Shown piece after piece: positions 9,200 through 59,427 of a stretch of 60,298 bases of DNA. Below the pieces are notes generated by a model. That model had not been told where the DNA came from, made no database searches, and saw only the letters and a program-made list of their open reading frames with translations. The DNA comes from an uncultured Gammaproteobacteria bacterium. Its GTDB lineage: Bacteria > Patescibacteriota > Microgenomatia > UBA12405. The stretch is from contig CAZLCB010000001.1 in the NCBI GenBank assembly GCA_964558195.1, forward strand, positions 1-60,298, in the 5' to 3' direction. Both the position numbers and the translations under genes were made by a program. Every line of letters starts with the position of its first letter. Within the stretch, counting starts at the first letter, position 1.

Positions 9200-11575
9200 T
9201 TATTTAAATATTTTTTTATAAATTTCTGAGTAGTGGTTAACTGGAATAAATTTGATATCCTTTTTGACTTCTTTGGGGATTTCGACTAAAGACTTTTCGT
9301 TATCTTTGGGGATAAAAATAGTTTTGAGTCCGGCGCGGTGAGCGGCAATAGATTTTTCTTTTAAGCCACCGATTTCTAAAATATTTCCCCGCAAAGTAAT
9401 TTCACCAGTCATACCAATTTCACGAGGGATCGGAGTATTTTTGAGAGCGGAAACTAAAGCAGTAGTAATAGCCCCACCAGCAGAAGGACCGTCTTTGGGA
9501 GTAGCACCTTCGGGAACGTGAATATGAATATCAATTTTGTGAAAATCTTGTTTGATACCAAATTCTTTTGATTGAGAACGAACAAAAGATAAAGCGGCTT
9601 GACAAGATTCTTTCATAACAGAGCCTAATTTTCCGGTCAAAATGAGTTGGCCTTTACCGGGCATAATATTGACTTCGATAAACAAAATATCACCACCAAC
9701 AGACGTCCAAGCTAAACCAGTGGAAACACCAGTTTCGTCTTTTTTACCTTTGAGAGTGGCAGTAAATTTTTCCGGACCCAAGAATTTTTTCAAAGTGACA
9801 GAGTTATTTAAATCAATAGAAGTTTTTTTGTCGGTAACAATTTTTTTTGCGGCCTTACGGAAAAGCGAAGAAATAGTTCGATCAAGACCACGAACCCCGG
9901 CTTCGCGAGTGTATTTTTCGACGATGTATTTGAGAGTTTCATCCTTAATTTCGGTAATATCGCTTTTGGATAAACCATTAGCGGTTAATTCTTTTTTGAC
10001 TAAATATTTTTTGGCAATATTAAATTTTTCGTCGAGAGTGTAACCGGAGAAATTAATAATTTCAAGACGATCTCGTAGGGGCCCAGGGATAGTAGAAATA
10101 TCGTTGCCGGTTAAGATAAAAAAGACTTTGGAAAGATCGACAGGGAAATCGACATAATGATCGTTGAATTCGCGATTTTGTTCCGGATCGAGAGTTTCGA
10201 GTAAAGCAGAAGATGGATCGCCACGATAATCAGAACCGATTTTGTCGACTTCATCAAGCATAAAAACTGGGTTCATGGTTTTGGCATCTTTGAGACCTTT
10301 GATAATGCGTCCAGGCATAGCGCCAACATACGTTCGGCGATGACCACGAATTTCGGCTTCGTCGCGAATACCACCAAGAGAGGCACGAATAAATTCGCGA
10401 CCAAGAGCCTTGGCGATAGATTTACCTAAAGAGGTTTTACCGACACCCGGAGGACCAATAAAACAAAGAATGTTGGCAGCGCCAGAAACGTCTTCGTTCT
10501 TTTTGGATTTAATTTTATTTTTGAGCTGAATGACGGCTAAATATTCAAGAATTCTTTCTTTAACATCTTTAATACCGTAATGATCTTCATCTAGAATTTT
10601 GGTAGCTTTGGACAAACTAACATCGGATTTGGAATATTTACCAAATGGAAGTTCAACGATAGTTTCAAGATAAGTTTTGATATAACTGGATTCGGGGGCC
10701 ATAGAGCCCATTTCCATAAGACGGTCGAGTTCTTTTTGGAGTTTTTTACGAATTTCTTTGGAAACATTAAGTTTTTTGATTTTCTTTTCGAGATCGTCGA
10801 ATTCCCCGCCACTAGATTGACCAAGACGTTTTAATTCTTTTTCAATTTGACGTTTGCGTTCTTCAAGAACATTACGCTTGATACCAGTGTTAAATTTTTC
10901 TTGAGTTTTTTCTTCGATAGAGCGTTCAAGATCGGCAATTTTCATTTCCTGAATAAGAGATTCAGTGACAGCTTTGAGACGTTGGCTAACTAAAAGAGTT
11001 TCAAGTAATCCCTGTTTTTCGGATATTTTTGCATCAAGAGAAAAAGCGACTTGATCGGCTAGATCGCTACTAGAGACGCCGTTACTAAGCTGCATCATGG
11101 CAGGCAGGTCTAGTTGACGACCCATAGCAAAGGCTTTTTTGAGCTGGCTTAATAAAGTTTCAGATGATTGTTGAACTTCGGCTAATGGTTCAGGAATAAT
11201 TGGAAGATCGACATATTCGGCTAAAAATAAAGGATCAGTTTTGAGAAGATTGACAATGTTGACTCGGGAAATACCTTTGACAATAGCGTGAAGGTTACCA
11301 TCGGTTTGAAGAACGTGTTCGATTTTAGCTAAAACACCAACATTATAAAGATCGTTAATGCCGGGATTGTCGACTCGAGAGTCTTTTTGAGTGGTAATAA
11401 TAACTAATTTATTGGTATTGTCGTAGGCGTGAAGAAGAGAATTCATGGATTCTTTGCGACCAAAGAAAAGTGAAGTTTCGACGGAAGGAAAGAGGATAAT
11501 ATTACGTAAAGGAATTAAGGGGAGAACTTTACGAACAGGTTGTAAAGTAGTAATTTCGTTGGCGTTTTGTTCCAT
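9200..11575 (-). CDS. lon: ATP-dependent Lon protease
   Basis: 791 aa with a LON N-domain, Walker A GPPGVGKTS and the protease motif PKDGPSAG. Confidence 0.95.
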   Translation of the reverse strand: MEQNANEITTLQPVRKVLPLIPLRNIILFPSVETSLFFGRKESMNSLLHAYDNTNKLVIITTQKDSRVDNPGINDLYNVGVLAKIEHVLQTDGNLHAIVKGISRVNIVNLLKTDPLFLAEYVDLPIIPEPLAEVQQSSETLLSQLKKAFAMGRQLDLPAMMQLSNGVSSSDLADQVAFSLDAKISEKQGLLETLLVSQRLKAVTESLIQEMKIADLERSIEEKTQEKFNTGIKRNVLEERKRQIEKELKRLGQSSGGEFDDLEKKIKKLNVSKEIRKKLQKELDRLMEMGSMAPESSYIKTYLETIVELPFGKYSKSDVSLSKATKILDEDHYGIKDVKERILEYLAVIQLKNKIKSKKNEDVSGAANILCFIGPPGVGKTSLGKSIAKALGREFIRASLGGIRDEAEIRGHRRTYVGAMPGRIIKGLKDAKTMNPVFMLDEVDKIGSDYRGDPSSALLETLDPEQNREFNDHYVDFPVDLSKVFFILTGNDISTIPGPLRDRLEIINFSGYTLDEKFNIAKKYLVKKELTANGLSKSDITEIKDETLKYIVEKYTREAGVRGLDRTISSLFRKAAKKIVTDKKTSIDLNNSVTLKKFLGPEKFTATLKGKKDETGVSTGLAWTSVGGDILFIEVNIMPGKGQLILTGKLGSVMKESCQAALSFVRSQSKEFGIKQDFHKIDIHIHVPEGATPKDGPSAGGAITTALVSALKNTPIPREIGMTGEITLRGNILEIGGLKEKSIAAHRAGLKTIFIPKDNEKSLVEIPKEVKKDIKFIPVNHYSEIYKKIFK

Positions 11576-11646
11576 ATATTTAGCAGTCTAACATTGACAT
11601 TGCTAAGTGTCAACCAATAAACGGTTATATAGTGTAAAATACACCA

Positions 11647-12567
11647 GTGCAAAATAAAAGTAGTGAAAATAAAACAGTTAAAAAAATTGGCAGAGTAGTG
11701 TTGGTTGGTCGGCCAAATACCGGCAAATCAAGCTTACTTAATGCGATTATGTCGCAAAAAGTAGCTATTACTTCCCCGTTGCCTCAAACAACCCGAAAAA
11801 ATAGTCGGGTGGTTTATAGTGACGATAGGGGTCAGATAATTTTTAGTGATACTCCTGGGATTATTGCAAAAGTGGATGATTTGATTGGAAAAAGAATTAA
11901 CCAGGAAGCACCAAAAGAATTAAACCAAGCAGATATTATTTTGTGTTTGGTAGATATTTCCCGACCAAAAAATGAAGAAGAAAATAAAGTAATTGGTTTA
12001 GTCCGAAAAGCACCAGTAAAAAAGATTTTGGTTTATAACAAAATAGATATTGCTATGGGTCCAAAGGATCATTTGCCAGAATATAATTATTTGGAAGATG
12101 AGTTTGATAAAGTAATTGGAGTCAGTGCTTTGAAAGATAAAAATGTGAAAGGTTTAATAAATTTGATTTTTGAATTGTTGCCGGAAAAGATTAATAAAGA
12201 AACTGAATATAATATCAGCATAATGGACAATGGAAATAAGCCAAAGATAGGAATGAATTCTAAAGAATATGTACAAGAAATTATTCGGGAAAAGGCATAT
12301 TTATTTTTGAGAGAAGAAGTCCCCTATTCGGTGGATGTCAGAGTTGATCAAATTACTGACAAAAGAAAAATGTTGGTGATTAAAGCAGCGATTTTGACGA
12401 CAGCTGAAAGATATAAAAAAATGATTATTGGCCGAGGTGGTAAAAAAATAAAAGAAATTGGTTACAATGCCCGTAAAGAATTGGAATTGATGACAGGTAG
12501 AAAGATATTTTTGGAATTGATGGTGGAAGTAGACAAACACTGGCCAGAAAGGGAAGTAGAAAGCTAA
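11647..12567 (+). CDS. era: GTPase Era
   Basis: G1 GRPNTGKSS, G3 DTPG, G4 NKID and a C-terminal KH domain (IIGRGGKKIKEIG). Confidence 0.9.
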   Translation: MQNKSSENKTVKKIGRVVLVGRPNTGKSSLLNAIMSQKVAITSPLPQTTRKNSRVVYSDDRGQIIFSDTPGIIAKVDDLIGKRINQEAPKELNQADIILCLVDISRPKNEEENKVIGLVRKAPVKKILVYNKIDIAMGPKDHLPEYNYLEDEFDKVIGVSALKDKNVKGLINLIFELLPEKINKETEYNISIMDNGNKPKIGMNSKEYVQEIIREKAYLFLREEVPYSVDVRVDQITDKRKMLVIKAAILTTAERYKKMIIGRGGKKIKEIGYNARKELELMTGRKIFLELMVEVDKHWPEREVES

Positions 12568-21333: not shown

Positions 21334-21996
21334 ATGATTAAATTTGAAGTATTGGTTTTGGGCCAACTTGAGACAAATTGTTATTTAGTTTGGGATGAAG
21401 AAACAAAAGACGGTTTAGTAATTGACCCAGCAGATGATGGGGTAGGAATTTCGGAGGAATTAAATAATAAAGGAATAAATTTAGTGGGAGTAGTGATGAC
21501 TCATGGACACTTTGACCATTCTTTGGCAGCTTTGGATTTGAAATTGATGTATAACGTGCCAGTTTATATAAGTTCAAAAGATAAGTTTTTGTTGGACAGA
21601 CAGGACGAAACAGCGAAACATTTTTTAAAAATGGATATAAAGACACCAAATATTTTGAAAATTGATAAAGATTTAGAGGAAATTAGAGAAATTAATTTTG
21701 GAAAAAGTAAATTGGAAGTAATTAAAACTCCAGGACATACGCCAGGGTCAGTGTGTCTTTTCAATCTCCCTCATTCCCTCTTTAACAAGAGGGAGGTAAA
21801 ACCAATTTTATTTTCTGGGGATACTTTATTTAAAGACTTAAGAGGCAGAACAGATTTTAAATATGGTTCGACTAAGAAAATTTTTGAAAGTTTAAGGAAA
21901 TTAATGGAATTACCAGAAGATACTGATGTTTTTTCGGGACATGGAGAACCGACAAACATTGGACGAGAAAAAGAAAGATACAGTTTCAAAAGTTAG
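21334..21996 (+). CDS. MBL-fold metallo-hydrolase (glyoxalase II-like)
   Basis: THGHFDH, TPGHTPGS and FSGDTLF motifs. Confidence 0.85.
   Translation: MIKFEVLVLGQLETNCYLVWDEETKDGLVIDPADDGVGISEELNNKGINLVGVVMTHGHFDHSLAALDLKLMYNVPVYISSKDKFLLDRQDETAKHFLKMDIKTPNILKIDKDLEEIREINFGKSKLEVIKTPGHTPGSVCLFNLPHSLFNKREVKPILFSGDTLFKDLRGRTDFKYGSTKKIFESLRKLMELPEDTDVFSGHGEPTNIGREKERYSFKS
21762..21799. repeat. CCCTC...GAGGG palindromic element, copy inside the MBL hydrolase CDS
   Basis: caatctccctcattccctctttaacaagagggaggtaaa. Hairpin ccctctt/aagaggg spans 21776-21793. It is clearly homologous to 40434-40470. Confidence 0.65.
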
Positions 21997-40111: not shown

Positions 40112-40372
40112 ATGGCAAAAAAATTATTTGTAGGCAATCTTCCTTTTGCAATGGCTGATGCTGATTTGAATTCAATCTTTTCAGCTTACGGTGCTGTAAC
40201 TTCAGCAAACGTAGTCATTGATAAATTCTCTAAGAGAAGCAAAGGCTTCGGTTTCGTTGAATTCGAAAACGATGAAGATGCTGCTAAAGCTATGGAAGCT
40301 CTCAATAACTCTGAACAGATGGGTAGAAATATCGCTGTAAAAGAAGCTTTACCAAAGCCAGATCGTCAATAA
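40112..40372 (+). CDS. Single-RRM RNA-binding protein (Rbp-like)
   Basis: KLFVGNLPF (RNP-2) and KGFGFVEF (RNP-1). 86 aa. Confidence 0.9.
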   Translation: MAKKLFVGNLPFAMADADLNSIFSAYGAVTSANVVIDKFSKRSKGFGFVEFENDEDAAKAMEALNNSEQMGRNIAVKEALPKPDRQ

Positions 40373-40396
40373 ACTAAATAAAAACGATTTATAGAA

Positions 40397-40422
40397 CCCT
40401 CCAGGAAACTGGAGGGTTTTTT
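40397..40422 (+). terminator. Intrinsic terminator
   Basis: ccctccag GAAA ctggaggg forms a perfect 8-bp stem with a GAAA loop, followed by T6. Confidence 0.8.
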
Positions 40423-40433
40423 GGATCAAGACA

Positions 40434-40470
40434 TAATCTCCCCTCCCCCTCTTTGACAAGAGGGGTAAAA
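40434..40470. repeat. CCCTC...GAGGG palindromic element, intergenic copy
   Basis: taatctcccctccccctctttgacaagaggggtaaaa. Perfect 8-bp hairpin cccctctt/aagagggg spans 40446-40465. A further hairpin cccttt/aaaggg lies at 40483-40501. Confidence 0.65.
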
Positions 40471-40530
40471 AAAATATTTAAACCCTTTGCTTTAAAAAGG
40501 GCAACTTAAAATAAGGTAAAATAGAGGAGA

Positions 40531-41904
40531 ATGAAAGAATTAGTGATCCCAGAGAGGATTAAAAAAATTATTGCTAAGTTTCACGAAAATAAAGCTGAGA
40601 TTTATATCGTCGGCGGGGCGGTTCGTGATCTTCTTTTGGGGCGAGAAGTAAACGATTGGGATTTTACCACTAATTTGACTCCAGAAGAAATGAAACAACT
40701 GTTTCCGAAAAATAGTTTTTATAATAATGCTTTTGGAACTTTGAGTATTGTAGAAAAGGATGGGGAAATTTTTGAAGTAACAACTTTTAGAACTGAAAGG
40801 GGTTATAGTGATGGTCGTCATCCAGATGAAATTAAATGGGGTAAAACCTTGACAGAAGATTTAGAAAGAAGAGACTTTACTATTAACGCGATGGCAATTA
40901 ATTTTAAACCCACTCTACCCTCCCTTAAAAAGGGAGGCTTTGACTCAGGAAATATTGAAATAATTGATTTGTTTGAAGGGCAAAAAGATTTAGAAAACAA
41001 ACTAATTAGAACTGTGGGTAACCCAGACGAGAGATTTGGTGAAGATGCATTGAGATTAATACGAGCAGTAAGAATTGCCGGACAAATAGGATTTAAAATT
41101 GAAGAAAAAACTTTGGAGTCGATTAAGAAAAATGCTCACTTAATTAAAAATATTGCCGGAGAAAGAATTCGGGATGAATTGTTTAAAATATTGTTATCCT
41201 CTACTCCATCAGAAGGAATTGAATTATTAAGAGAATCCGGATTGATGGCTGAAATTATGCCGGAATTGATTAATGGTGTAGGAATGACCCAAAAAGGACA
41301 TCATATTGATGACGTCTGGACACATAATTTAAAAGCTTTGGATAATTGCCAAAGTAATAATCCGGTAACCAGATTGGCGGCTTTGCTTCACGATGTAGGT
41401 AAACCAAAATCAATGCGGGATGATGGAAAAGAAAAAACATTTCACAATCATGAAGTTTATGGATCAAGAATTGCGGTTGAAATCGGTAAAAGATTGAAAT
41501 TATCAAATAAAGAATTGGATCAATTGTTTAGATTGGTGCGATGGCATATGTTTACAGTACAAGAAACTCAAACTGATAAGGCAGTGAGAAGATTTATTAG
41601 AAATGTAACATTGGATTATATTGATGAAATGATTGCTATGCGTCGAGCCGACAGATTAGGTAGTGGAGCTAAGGAGACTAGTTGGCGATGGGAATTATTT
41701 AAACAAAGAATTGTAGAGGTCCAGAAGCAGCCATTTGCAGTCAAAGACTTGAAAGTGAATGGCTTGGATGTAATGGAAATATTAGGAATAAAACCAGGGC
41801 CAAAGATCGGTGAGGTATTGAACAGTATTTTTAAAGAAGTGGAAGAAAAACCAGAATTAAATGACAGAGAAATTTTGTTAGAAAAAATTAAAAGTTTTAA
41901 ATAA
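40531..41904 (+). CDS. cca: CCA-adding enzyme (tRNA nucleotidyltransferase) with HD domain
   Basis: IVGGAVRDLLLG, RRDFTINAMA and LLHDVGKP motifs. Confidence 0.9.
   Translation: MKELVIPERIKKIIAKFHENKAEIYIVGGAVRDLLLGREVNDWDFTTNLTPEEMKQLFPKNSFYNNAFGTLSIVEKDGEIFEVTTFRTERGYSDGRHPDEIKWGKTLTEDLERRDFTINAMAINFKPTLPSLKKGGFDSGNIEIIDLFEGQKDLENKLIRTVGNPDERFGEDALRLIRAVRIAGQIGFKIEEKTLESIKKNAHLIKNIAGERIRDELFKILLSSTPSEGIELLRESGLMAEIMPELINGVGMTQKGHHIDDVWTHNLKALDNCQSNNPVTRLAALLHDVGKPKSMRDDGKEKTFHNHEVYGSRIAVEIGKRLKLSNKELDQLFRLVRWHMFTVQETQTDKAVRRFIRNVTLDYIDEMIAMRRADRLGSGAKETSWRWELFKQRIVEVQKQPFAVKDLKVNGLDVMEILGIKPGPKIGEVLNSIFKEVEEKPELNDREILLEKIKSFK
40908..40945. repeat. Related CCCTCCCTT...AAGGGAGG palindromic element inside the cca CDS
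   Basis: Hairpin cctccctt/aagggagg spans 40919-40937. It encodes KPTLPSLKKGGFDS in a loop after the NAMA motif. Confidence 0.55.
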
Positions 41905-48295: not shown

Positions 48296-48601
48296 AGCCT
48301 TCAGAGAAATTGAAGTGTCTGACCTGACGAAAGCTAACGCAATCTGACGGTAGGAAAGTCCGGACCACAAAAGGTACAGAACCTAAAAATGTAGGGATTT
48401 GGGTAACCAAATGGCAATGCTACAGAGACGAGTAAGCAAGCCGCCTTCGCAAGAAGCTACGGTGAGCCGAAGTGAAACGAGCAACCTTCTGGTGGAAATC
48501 TCAAGTTGAGACATCAATATCTAACCTTTGAGAGTCTCAGGTAGGGAGAATAGATAGATGACACATAAACAGAATCCGGCTTAACAATTTCTTTGAAGGC
48601 T
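48296..48601 (+). ncRNA. rnpB: RNase P RNA, bacterial type A, compact (~306 nt)
   Basis: P1 pairs agccttcagagaaattg with caatttctttgaaggct. The P4 strands GAAAGUCCGGAC and ACAGAAUCCGGCUUA are present. Confidence 0.9.
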
Positions 48602-48611
48602 TTTGTTTGGA

Positions 48612-49586
48612 CTATTTTTTATTCATCAAGACTTTTACAACAGTTTCGAGTGTAAGAAATATAGGTAAAGCTAAGATTGCTCCAATAACACCACCAAGCT
48701 TGGCACCGGCAGCAATAAGTAAGATAGTGACTAGTGGATTAAAACCGACCGTTTGCTTCATGACACGAGGGACAATGATGTTGTTTTCTAATTGTTGGAT
48801 AACAATACCAACAATAACGGTTAAGATTCCGATTAATGGAGAAACAGTAAATCCGACTAAAGCAGCTACTAATGTGGCAACTGTAGGACCAATAGACGGG
48901 ACGGCTTCAAGTAAACCAGCAAAAATAGCTAAAGGAACAGCGTATTTAAGTCCAAGTGATAAATAAGCTATATAGGAAATGCCACCAATAATGGTCATAA
49001 GGAAAAATTCAGCAGTAACCCAACTACCAAGTCGATTTTCGAGACGTTCGATGATAGCAATGGCTTTTTTTTGACCATTTTCACCGAACATTTCTAAACT
49101 ATACTTAGGAAAATTTTTCTTTTCCAGTAAGAGGTAGAAGGTAAGAAACATAATAACAAAAGCAGAAATAACATTTGAGACTAATGAAATGGCAGTCTTA
49201 GCAATACCTCCGGGAAGATTTTCGAGAATTTTAAATTGAGATGATAGATCAATCGGATTCGTACCGAGGATTTTGATGTTGCTAAGAGTGCTAGGTAATG
49301 TCTGAACTAATCCAGCAGTTTGTTCAACCAAGATTGGAACAATACCAGCAACTGCAAAAGAAATAACTGCCAAGATAATAATATAGACGATTAGAATAGC
49401 TAATGGTCGGGGAATTTTAAATTTTTCCAAACGAACAATGGCAGGATTAACAGCTTCCATAAAAACAAAACTAATGAAGAGAAGAACGATGAGAGCACGA
49501 ACTTGCCAAAGTAAAAACAAAGAAAGTAGAAATAAAACGGTAAACACTACAGTTTTGGTAGAAACTTCAAATTTTTTATTGATCAT
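48612..49586 (-). CDS. AI-2E family transporter (PerM/UPF0118)
   Basis: 324 aa with about 8 TM helices. The C-terminal pattern IGPTVA...P.....V.QQLENNIIVPRVM is characteristic. Confidence 0.85.
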   Translation of the reverse strand: MINKKFEVSTKTVVFTVLFLLSLFLLWQVRALIVLLFISFVFMEAVNPAIVRLEKFKIPRPLAILIVYIIILAVISFAVAGIVPILVEQTAGLVQTLPSTLSNIKILGTNPIDLSSQFKILENLPGGIAKTAISLVSNVISAFVIMFLTFYLLLEKKNFPKYSLEMFGENGQKKAIAIIERLENRLGSWVTAEFFLMTIIGGISYIAYLSLGLKYAVPLAIFAGLLEAVPSIGPTVATLVAALVGFTVSPLIGILTVIVGIVIQQLENNIIVPRVMKQTVGFNPLVTILLIAAGAKLGGVIGAILALPIFLTLETVVKVLMNKK

Positions 49587-50506
49587 ACCTTAGTATACCA
49601 TCGGGAAACCAGGGTTAATATTTGTTTTTTGAACTGGGGATTGGTAATGTCAAAAAAACAGGCACCGGATTTAGTTTTAAACCAACAACTTTGACGTCGG
49701 GCATCAGAATGTTCGGCATAAGACCAGAGTTGGAGACAGAAGGCCAAGTCTTTTTTATTTTCAAAATATGGACGAAGGCATTGGTAAGCCCCAATTTGCA
49801 TACCGGGATCAGACCATTTATATTTTTTTAATAATTTAGTTATTTCGCTTAAAAACCCAATTTGCATGCGTTTATTAACCCGTGTATCAATGCGTTGATA
49901 AAGAAAATCGAGTGGAGCGGTGAGAGAAATATGTAAGATGTCGAAACCCTCCCCTAACCCCTCCCTTGACAAGGCGGGGAACTGTTTTTTTTTGGTTAAA
50001 TTTGCTATTTTAATTTCTATTTTTCTGGTTAAACGATAATGATTATTAACGTCGGAATGATTTAGTTTAGAAAAGTTCTCCGGGTCTAAAAATTGATAAA
50101 TTTTTTGTAAAAATTTTACCGAACAAAGACGAGAAATAAAACGCCAAAATTTATGAGGTTTAACCGAAAACGTGGTGTAATTAGGATTAATTAAAGAGTC
50201 AATATAAAAACCACTGCAACCAACTAAAATAGGTAACTTGTTTCGGGATTGAATTTCAGTAATAGTTTGGAGGCCAATTTTTTGAAAATCAGCCACGGAA
50301 AATTTTTGATCAGGAGTGATGATATCGATTAAATGAATTGGTGTTTCTTCTGGTTGATCTTTGCCAGTACCAATATCCATACCTTTGTAGATTTGACACG
50401 AATCGCCAGAGACTAATTCCCCATTGTATTTTTTTGCCAATTCCACAGCCAAATCGGTTTTGCCGGTAGCAGTGGGACCAGAAATGACTAAAAGTTTGTT
50501 AAGCAT
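49583..50506 (-). CDS. miaA: tRNA dimethylallyltransferase
   Basis: ATG at 50506 ([25 protein letters not shown]), overlapping the ychF stop by 8 nt. The longer ORF to 50794 is a shadow extension. Confidence 0.9.
   Translation of the reverse strand: MLNKLLVISGPTATGKTDLAVELAKKYNGELVSGDSCQIYKGMDIGTGKDQPEETPIHLIDIITPDQKFSVADFQKIGLQTITEIQSRNKLPILVGCSGFYIDSLINPNYTTFSVKPHKFWRFISRLCSVKFLQKIYQFLDPENFSKLNHSDVNNHYRLTRKIEIKIANLTKKKQFPALSREGLGEGFDILHISLTAPLDFLYQRIDTRVNKRMQIGFLSEITKLLKKYKWSDPGMQIGAYQCLRPYFENKKDLAFCLQLWSYAEHSDARRQSCWFKTKSGACFFDITNPQFKKQILTLVSRWYTKV
49945..49985. repeat. Related palindromic element inside the miaA CDS
   Basis: aaccctcccctaacccctcccttgacaaggcggggaactg. The hairpin spans 49959-49979. 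It encodes FPALSREGLGEGF on the minus strand. Confidence 0.55.
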
Positions 50507-59392: not shown

Positions 59393-59427
59393 TAACCAAA
59401 AACCCTCCAAAATGGATTGGAGGGTTT
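59393..59427 (-). terminator. Intrinsic terminator of rplM-rpsI
   Basis: On the minus strand: aaccctcca atccatt ttggagggtt followed by tttggtt. Confidence 0.7.

Follow-up and report, generated by a model that had tools for sequence, protein, structure and literature searches.

What kind of repeat stands between two genes of an AT-rich genome and is met again, in frame, inside conserved genes of the same contig? The question is raised by the G/C-rich element at positions 40434-40470 of contig CAZLCB010000001.1 (assembly GCA_964558195.1), whose whole analysed stretch of 60,298 nucleotides we call the window. According to our analysis this element belongs to a family of three-arm repeats of about 35 bases (33-37 nt), four copies of which are present in the window sequence, one intergenic and three in genes. 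We consider it reasonably probable that these are selfish or neutral repeats of the triplex class, which are copied and exchanged via replication and repair and whose in-gene copies survive in loops of the encoded proteins.

Four copies on a three-arm plan

The original prediction had taken the intergenic copy for a homolog of the stretch at 21762-21799, had pointed to two further copies on the same plan and had described all of them as palindromic, G/C-rich hairpins. The 18-mer CCCTCTTTGACAAGAGGG, at up to 3 mismatches, matches the window twice against 0.01 expected. All four copies were recovered by nhmmer and by a scan for the three-arm (triplex-type) structure, the two further ones with bounds of 40906-40938 and 49944-49979. 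With a profile built from 124 family members nhmmer gave four sites only in the 60 kb at E<10, the C-rich strand lying on the + strand in all of them, and the three-arm scan returned the same four sites and no others, where 0.017 are expected from block shuffles. The copies, with arms numbered along the C-rich strand, are the following.

40434..40470, + strand: copy 1, type A, the intergenic reference, supported by the sequence, nhmmer, the fold and the triplex scan; arm1 TCTCCCC (40437-40443), spacer TC, arm2 CCCCTCTT (40446-40453), loop TGAC, arm3 AAGAGGGG (40458-40465)
21762..21799, + strand: copy 2, type A, in frame in the gene of a hydrolase of the metallo-beta-lactamase (MBL) fold, encoding LPHSLFNKREV; arm1 TCTCCCT (21765-21771), spacer CAT, arm2 TCCCTCTT (21775-21782), loop TAAC, arm3 AAGAGGGA (21787-21794)
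40906..40938, + strand: copy 3, type B, in frame in the gene of the CCA-adding enzyme, encoding KPTLPSLKKGG; AAA start, arm1 CCCACTC (40909-40915), spacer TA, arm2 CCCTCCCTT (40918-40926), loop AAA, arm3 AAGGGAGG (40930-40937)
49944..49979, + strand: copy 4, type C, in frame in miaA, a gene of the - strand, encoding PALSREGLGEGF; AAA start, arm1 CCCTCCCC (49947-49954), spacer TAA, arm2 CCCCTCCCTT (49958-49967), loop GAC, arm3 AAGGCGGGG (49971-49979)

Perfect 8-bp stems are found in copies 1-3 (40446-40465, 21775-21794 and 40919-40937), with DNA hairpin energies of -7.2 to -8.5 kcal/mol and z about -3; copy 4, whose 9-bp stem contains one mismatch and one G-T pair, folds more weakly (z about -1.2). 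The elements as a whole are mirror-plus-inverted repeats rather than plain palindromes. Read along the C-rich strand, an element starts with AA(A/T) and continues with the pyrimidine arm1, a spacer of 2-3 nt (often TAA), arm2, a loop of 3-4 nt (often GAC) and the purine arm3, where arm2 mirrors arm1 and arm3 is the reverse complement of arm2. The covariation of the arms, taken together with the mirror symmetry, means that the G-rich strand reads C-arm, loop, G-arm, TTA, mirrored G-arm. In copy 1 the G-rich strand is the - strand, a potential former of a purine-motif triplex; in copy 4 it is the sense strand of miaA.

The covariation itself is seen in the run lengths of arm1, arm2 and arm3, which go together as (3,3,3) in 56 cases, (4,4,4-5) in 38 and (5,5,5-6) in 8, and in the matching flanking bases across the arms, which are T,T,A in 55 cases and C,C,G in another 55. 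For the copies with an asymmetric arm2 we find 19 in which arm1 mirrors it, none in which arm1 repeats it directly and 17 in which arm1 does neither. The triplex-type scan is passed by 104 of 104 unique type A copies and 120 of 122 unique copies of types B and C, compared with about 40% of controls with a shuffled arm1. Mirror and direct repeats were judged by this controlled scan and by the run-length test, which were used instead of an automated 7-mer comparison affected by stems running into the flanks; the register of an RNAalifold run on the MAFFT alignment of the copies was poor. Conservation ends at the three arms, the flanks beyond showing none, and the loops differ among copies (GAC, GTC, ATC, AAA). 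Type A falls into two sharp consensus subtypes, cAATCTCCCTAAATCCCTCTTTGACAAGAGGGACTT and cAATCTCCCCTAACCCCTCTTTGACAAGAGGGG, whereas the type B/C pattern used for scanning, AAACCC N5-10 CCYTCCCTT N3-4 ARGGNNGG, leaves one stretch free, which is C-rich in nearly all matches. C-type copies carry a conserved central mismatch in the stem.

By these features the elements fall into the class of intrastrand triplex motifs rich in G and C, to which the BoxC/PIT/TMECO repeats of E. coli and of further Proteobacteria, as well as the G/C-rich triplex motifs known from cyanobacteria, belong (Holder et al. 2015, NAR, PMC4666352). They have a pyrimidine arm, a complementary purine arm, a mirror third arm and short loops (ITxF-type), they occur in many dispersed and highly similar copies within and across genomes, and their loci are, in a qualitative comparison, unusually variable between close relatives. 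They do not follow the exact TMECO consensus, CCCTCNCCC N3-6 GGGNGAGGG N3 GGGNGAGGG: the arms are of 7-8 nt and of other sequence, such as CCCCGCC / GGGAGGGG / GGGGAGGG, while the arm order and the TTA loop are shared. Since the arm sequences are unlike that consensus, we file the family under the wider class and not under TMECO itself. That E. coli copies are exclusively intergenic and free of strand bias is not part of the class definition, and neither property holds here.

Some simpler identities were considered and set aside. A G-quadruplex (G4) is not the unifying feature: the G strands of types B and C are canonical G4 motifs, and the - strand of copy 4 is the sole such motif in the window (49947-49965), but type A copies, the reference copy included, have only two G runs. 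Neither an Rfam gathering scan of the window nor an E-value scan of 40300-41000 matched a known RNA family at the elements. A promoter reading of the TTGACA loop was also dropped, as the search gave no sigma-70-like site and the loop sequence changes from copy to copy.

In a few elements of the syntenic loci introduced below a small extra hairpin replaces the TA or TAA spacer between the like arms (L126 10372-10420, L001 9205-9262, L004 7546-7600), reading GTCTttcAGAC, TGTCCttcgGGACA and TGTCGATaaATCGACA. Such a mini-hairpin still brings the like arms side by side and is in this sense compatible with a triplex or G4 fold.

The immediate surroundings of copy 1 are as had been predicted, an intergenic position between a terminator and a second hairpin. 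The copy begins about 10 nt past the terminator-like hairpin of a gene for a protein with an RNA recognition motif (RRM) and ends 60 nt before the CCA gene.

40395..40424, + strand: intrinsic-terminator-like hairpin of the RRM gene (stem 40395-40418), AACCCTCCAggaaacTGGAGGGTT followed by a T run
40483..40501, + strand: weak A/T-closed hairpin 3' of copy 1, CCCTTTGctttaAAAAGGG, with AAA in front

Both are visible in the sequence, though a simple terminator scanner did not flag the hairpin at 40395-40418. The first is kept in the loci L126-L128; the second is absent from the compared relatives and may be a decayed second element. The stems of two terminator-like hairpins, at 40395-40418 and 59400-59427 (AAACCCTCC...GGAGGGTTT), resemble the element arms with the AAACCC start, and from this likeness a relation between terminators and the repeat family is possible.

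The window has a G+C content of 31-40% and a GC skew of its + strand that is positive throughout. The best-named homologs of its proteins come from Candidatus Shapirobacteria at 85-90% identity, and the organism therefore belongs to the Candidate Phyla Radiation (CPR; Microgenomates). The label "uncultured Gammaproteobacteria bacterium" is carried by contigs syntenic with the window (for instance L004, L051 and L055, CAYRYK01) and by other syntenic "binchicken"/SRP metagenome-assembled genomes (MAGs); the organism names of these MAGs are unreliable. For the RNase P RNA gene at 48305-48592 (+ strand) it is the archaeal model RF00373, and not a bacterial one, that scores above the gathering cutoff (100 bits), which may reflect a reduced or atypical CPR RNase P RNA.

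Host genes and turnover at orthologous sites

Three of the four copies had been placed inside conserved genes, and this is the case for the following genes.

21334..21996, + strand: MBL-fold (glyoxalase II-like) hydrolase, 220 aa, identified by Pfam PF00753 and orthologs; host of copy 2
40531..41904, + strand: CCA-adding tRNA nucleotidyltransferase with HD domain, 457 aa (PF01743, PF12627, PF01966); host of copy 3
49583..50494, - strand: tRNA dimethylallyltransferase MiaA, 303 aa, identified by Pfam PF01715 and orthologs; host of copy 4

The prediction would fail if the in-gene segments were ordinary protein sequence conserved in orthologs, and for each protein we compared the 120 closest homologs. 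In the MBL hydrolase the stretch between HTPG and FSGD has 12 residues in 89 of them and 17-37 in the other 31; at the site of the CCA-adding enzyme 90 homologs have 7-14 residues and 30 have 17-32; in MiaA, peptides that look element-derived are present in 39, within a variable linker. Solved structures are likewise without the inserts, with gaps of 9 residues in PDB 2xf4 and 7ev5 for the MBL insert and of 15 residues in 6ibp for the CCA one. The segments, missing from about three-quarters of the closest orthologs, are insertions into protein loops and not conserved protein. An AlphaFold (AF2) model of the MBL hydrolase predicts residues 145-157 as a coil of lower pLDDT between strands 140-144 and 158-162.

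The same DNA has been copied into unrelated sites. KPTLPSLKKGG of the CCA gene in the window recurs as KPTLPSLEKGG in MBL orthologs of other genomes, and the window CCA copy agrees with the MBL copy of locus L001 at about 30 of 33 nt; the miaA copy of the window shares 28 consecutive nt with a copy in rlmN of L001. Such DNA identity across unrelated genes means shared DNA and not convergent protein evolution. It bears directly on an explanation that would see here ordinary lineage-specific loops, selected for protein function, with the DNA likeness arising from convergence on peptides of the P-S-L-K-K-G-G type. The recurrence of KPTLPSLKKGG in CCA and MBL orthologs would suit it, as would loops that persist after decay of the G/C runs, e.g. 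WKNTLLNFKKEGF. However, the elements are translated in four or more reading frames, from either strand, into unrelated peptides (NLPKSLFDKRDL, SPNPSLTRGG, KSLLSKRDLGRL, SPLVKEGLGEI), the same DNA is found intergenically, and the nucleotide identity goes far above what amino-acid constraint would require. Besides, 63 host open reading frames (ORFs) span 94 Pfam families, mostly of housekeeping function (MiaA five times, MiaB-like, MetRS, TsaD, Sua5, TsaE, Dus, PheT, Fpg). We regard protein-level convergence as extremely improbable.

Relatives were compared through five syntenic loci (L001, L004, L126, L127 and L128), whose flanking proteins are 82-92% identical, and the orthologous sites show turnover of elements. 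The MBL site is empty in L004, filled with type A in the window and with type B in L001. At the CCA site L127 is empty, the window and L128 carry type B, and L126 carries type B with a nested mini-hairpin. The dus site is empty in the window and holds two different elements in L001 and L004, and rlmN of L001 contains a clean 36-nt insertion with no target-site duplication. The spacer between the RRM and CCA genes is filled at one position in all four genomes (window, L126, L127, L128) by differing subtypes; here the stems of the window and L126 differ by three compensatory pairs, while hardly any difference is seen in the terminator and the promoter-proximal flanks. At the compared sites neither a target motif nor a target-site duplication is evident, and in two cases the 5' AAA may have pre-existed at the target.

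Perfect stems that change by compensatory pairs could also be expected if template-switch (quasi-palindrome) mutation had created each hairpin in place, without any copying from one locus to another. Some orthologs have only an arm3-like AAAAAGGAGGG, readable as a precursor of such a hairpin. In locus L250, though, what is left is arm3 alone, and its 3' junction is that of the filled allele of L001, so that this allele is more simply understood as a remnant of partial deletion. Identities of 28-33 nt across unrelated loci and genomes, which include the unpaired arm1, spacer and loop, and near-identical copies numbering in hundreds make birth in place highly improbable in our view.

Other structural changes were noted at these loci. 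In L126 (GCA_964428535.1), the closest relative, an ORF for a hydrophobic protein of 117 aa is inserted at 9631-9984 directly after the intergenic element, together with duplicated promoter- and ribosome-binding-site-proximal sequence, a structural change that adjoins the element. In L004, compared with the window, two genes, one for a GIY-YIG-domain protein and one for a DUF2726 protein, are inserted downstream of the MBL gene (11008-12057). In relatives without the G/C-rich element (L128 9381-10337, - strand; L126 19134-19991, - strand; and MiaA orthologs) the same site of the MiaA linker carries A/T-rich segments, each with an 11-nt unit in direct repeat, for example ATTGAAAATTG..ATTGAAAATTG (NIENCKLKIEN) and ATACTAAATAC..ATACTAAATAC (NTKYLIPDTKY), which may represent a second, A/T-rich mini-repeat family.

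Spread, orientation and the proposed explanation

The family would have been doubted if further copies had been missing outside the window. Exact-pattern scans were run on contigs of species-representative genomes and on metagenome contigs. The type B/C pattern gave at least 120 matches in the former, with about 13 expected by a rough chance estimate, and the type A pattern at least 120 in the latter, all listed ones at 30-45% G+C. Among the listed matches the CPR hosts are Shapirobacteria, Parcubacteria, Gracilibacteria, Peribacteria, Saccharibacteria, SR1/Absconditabacterales, Moranbacteria and Azambacteria, and the others include Melainabacteria, Saprospiraceae, Ignavibacteria, Accumulibacter, Gallionellaceae, Geobacter, Legionellaceae, alphaproteobacteria, an actinobacterium and others, some of these non-CPR loci having 55-65% G+C. 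Single genomes may hold many copies, at least 9 near-identical ones in Parcubacteria OH_SDB_33 and at least 5 of type A in one 949-kb contig. A phage vehicle was rejected, as IMG/VR gave 1 match only. Of the copies in low-GC (CPR-like) contigs, 40-54% fall within ORFs that have at least 100-150 codons, compared with 78-90% of random positions.

Two groups of hosts show peculiarities of their own. In the melainabacterium Candidatus Avigastranaerophilus (JAZRWI01) a unit of about 150 nt, with the motif as its core, is repeated (loci L007, L013, L029, L040, L050, L062, L074, L085, L096, L097, L108, L113 and L116). The ends of this unit, GAGGCTGTC ... GACAGCCTC, resemble terminal inverted repeats (TIRs); tandem units occur in some cases at a spacing of 153-177 nt, the unit seems nested in the loop of another copy, and these copies have no strand bias. 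In high-GC proteobacterial MAGs (L030, L112, L027, L103 and L100; Gallionellaceae and others) the motif lies in long ORFs with further repeat-like peptides nearby (SPDKGRLGGV, PPLTRGGWEGF). Several elements may be stacked there in one protein, although long ORFs in GC-rich DNA can be spurious.

Orientation was tabulated, together with genic or intergenic location, relative to GC skew, which was measured on loci of 3-14 kb and taken as a proxy for replication direction. For type A the C-rich strand lies on the locally G-skewed strand in a ratio of 78:11 (p 1e-13), that is 42:0 within genes, where the genes are split 21/21 by direction, and 36:11 between them. Types B and C in low-GC contigs give 36:5 within and 16:18 between genes, and intragenic copies combined stand at 78:5 versus 52:29 for intergenic ones; type B/C copies in high-GC loci and in Melainabacteria have no orientation bias. 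A single orientation, the one that this bias favours, is shared by the four copies of the window and by the eight distinct sites counted across the window and its syntenic relatives. The bias is independent of the direction of transcription and strongest within genes. Its simplest reading is an orientation-dependent instability in replication, the harmful orientation being purged most strictly from essential genes, although a step of insertion specific for one orientation may also be at work.

A strong GC-skew bias would also be expected of transposition that depends on single-stranded DNA, as if the repeats were non-autonomous elements of the REP/REPIN or PATE kind (REP, repetitive extragenic palindromic), moved by an HUH (Y1) transposase encoded elsewhere and acting on a hairpin of the lagging-strand template. 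The element size, the imperfect hairpin with its conserved central mismatch in C-type copies and the lack of a target-site duplication at the rlmN insertion agree with such a mechanism, and REPs within genes are documented (PMC3733652). Yet types A and C are without a GTAG or CGTC tag, no transposase was found in the window or in the Pfam-annotated syntenic loci, the related TMECO elements are unlinked to transposons, and the mirror-repeat third arm is conserved, which the REP model does not require. The ratio of 78:5 in genes against 52:29 between them suggests selection rather than an insertion preference behind the bias. We judge transposase-driven movement to be unlikely, if worth keeping in mind.

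The split of 21:21 relative to gene direction concerns another explanation, in which each site would carry a selected cis-acting structure such as a terminator, an RNA-stabilising hairpin, a Shine-Dalgarno (SD) or anti-SD mimic, or a G-quadruplex/hairpin switch. It would account for the position of the intergenic copy between the terminator and the start of the CCA gene, a site filled in all four relatives, for the T runs after several copies on the C strand, for the Shine-Dalgarno-like arm3, and for the G4 motifs of types B and C. Against it speaks that copies run in either direction relative to genes, that orthologs 82-92% identical differ in having or lacking a copy at the same codon, that type A has no G4 motif and that no Rfam family matches. 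PIT elements, moreover, have neither promoter nor terminator activity in E. coli (PMC4666352), and no sigma-70-like promoter was found around copy 1. Site-by-site cis function seems to us quite unlikely.

We return to the proposed reading, repeats of the triplex class copied and exchanged in replication and repair. When single-stranded, arm2 and arm3 would pair as a hairpin, and the third arm would lie in its major groove, forming a purine-motif triplex on the G strand. The folded structure would stall synthesis or lead to a break, which templated repair or gene conversion from another copy of the family would then resolve, with slippage producing deletions; no dedicated transposase would be needed. 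In the gene-dense, AT-rich CPR genome an in-gene copy could survive only with an open frame and in a surface loop, adding 7-16 residues, and only the orientation that places the G-rich strand on the C-skewed strand, presumably the leading-strand template, would be tolerated inside genes.

Several points weigh against this reading. The triplex is predicted from sequence and energies were computed for the hairpin only, in vivo footprinting of TMECO detected no triplex (PMC4666352), and window copies 2 and 3 have one third-arm mismatch each. The window and the compared loci yielded no trans-acting enzyme, no target motif and no target-site duplication. GC skew informs on replication direction only as a proxy, from these short loci. 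The four window copies represent three subtypes, which speaks against recent homogenisation in this genome, and recurrence in the same loop could reflect independent insertions filtered by protein tolerance and not conversion. E. coli TMECO are always intergenic and have no strand bias (PMC4666352), so that the CPR elements behave differently from the reference family, and the differing arm sequences do not decide between common descent with TMECO and convergence.

It may even be suggested, as a bolder and rather doubtful idea, that three-arm motifs constitute a distinct class of very small DNA parasite that has no transposase of its own and spreads by host replication and repair. Single strands at the replication fork would fold, stall synthesis and become copied or converted by the host machinery. 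If true, this would explain the presence across phyla, the lack of an associated gene and the near-absolute strand orientation within CPR genes, and would mean a steady supply of new loops for essential enzymes in reduced genomes. The copies show, besides, that part of the loops which are lineage-specific in housekeeping enzymes of CPR is repeat-derived and not adaptive (the CCA-adding enzyme, MiaA, MiaB-like proteins, TsaD and aminoacyl-tRNA synthetases), which matters for annotating, aligning and modelling CPR proteins.

Comparison with known repeat systems

The parallel drawn at the outset was with Rickettsia palindromic elements (RPE), reportedly described by Ogata and co-workers in 2000. 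It holds for behaviour: both are repeats that sit in frame in genes of a reduced genome, genes that are conserved and in many cases essential, and both are tolerated there as additional segments of the protein surface, missing from some orthologs and present or absent between related genomes. In structure they differ, RPEs being palindromes of about 100-150 bp with a CGTC tag (their termini are treated in PMC3733652), confined to Rickettsia and without a polypurine/polypyrimidine mirror arm, whereas the CPR elements measure 33-37 nt, have no CGTC in the four copies and share no sequence similarity with them. The closest described relatives are instead BoxC/PIT/TMECO (PMC4666352).

REP and REPIN sequences with their RAYT transposases (PMC3733652, PMC3116915) also form imperfect hairpins that are G/C-rich, 20-40 nt long and present in many copies, some of them in genes, and their families are species-specific, which we count as a likeness. 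They differ by an unpaired GTAG (or CGTC) tag at the hairpin end, a frequent arrangement as inverted dimers, linkage to RAYT, none of which was seen here, and by the lack of a third mirror arm. GTAG in type B is only the junction G-TA-G between two G arms, and no RAYT/Y1 transposase gene is present in the window or among the annotated genes of the syntenic loci. Miniature inverted-repeat transposable elements, defined by TIRs matching an insertion sequence and by a target-site duplication, do not correspond either, with the exception of the TIR-like ends of the Avigastranaerophilus unit.

Small dispersed repeats (SDR) of heterocystous cyanobacteria, said to have been described by Elhai and co-workers in 2008, and the GC clusters which lie within yeast mitochondrial genes resemble the CPR elements in being about 20-40 nt long, G/C-rich, seemingly mobile and non-coding, and in residing in genes without destroying them. 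They are set apart, by their descriptions only, through their sequences and hosts and because triplex-type symmetry is not a defining feature of them.

BoxC/PIT/TMECO elements have been known since the 1990s, and to our knowledge neither a function nor a mode of spreading has been established. Repeats of this kind are already on record, and repeats that genes tolerate in frame have been described in Rickettsia and for some REPs (PMC3733652). Occurrence in CPR had been suspected to be new. In the searchable literature we found nothing relevant on palindromic elements in CPR or Patescibacteria and no description of this class in CPR genomes, of heavy occupation of essential genes, of subtype swaps at the same site or of a near-absolute intragenic orientation rule; the family itself is not specific to CPR and is present in other phyla too.

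The reference family has 23 copies in E. coli K-12, always intergenic, exemplified by CCCTCTCCC TTGA GGGAGAGGG TTA GGGTGAGGG; TMECO forms an intrastrand purine-motif triplex in vitro, shows no strand bias, transposon link, or promoter or terminator activity, and marks loci of raised variability (PMC4666352, where Hoyne et al. 2000 is cited on PIT elements). The CPR elements share with it the length of 33-37 nt, the succession of C-arm, loop of 3-6 nt, G-arm, TTA loop of 3 nt and mirrored G-arm, the frequent single mismatch in the centre of the C-arm, the many dispersed and highly similar copies, the lack of an associated transposon or phage (here 1 IMG/VR match), and loci unusually variable among close relatives through whole or partial deletions. 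They differ by arms of 7-8 nt (GGGAGGGG, AGAGGGG) in place of the 9-nt GGGNGAGGG, by lying in frame in genes in three of four cases in the window and in 40-54% in CPR-like contigs, by an orientation that strongly tracks GC skew, by AT-rich reduced CPR hosts and by the extra mini-hairpin between the like arms of some copies. The CPR copies supply what E. coli lacks: exact insertion boundaries, among them those of the clean 36-nt gain in rlmN; alleles that are empty, filled or swapped at one and the same codon between genomes 82-92% identical, with deletion remnants; and a very strong link of orientation to GC skew, independent of transcription and strongest in genes. With these the movement of such repeats and its limits become directly testable.

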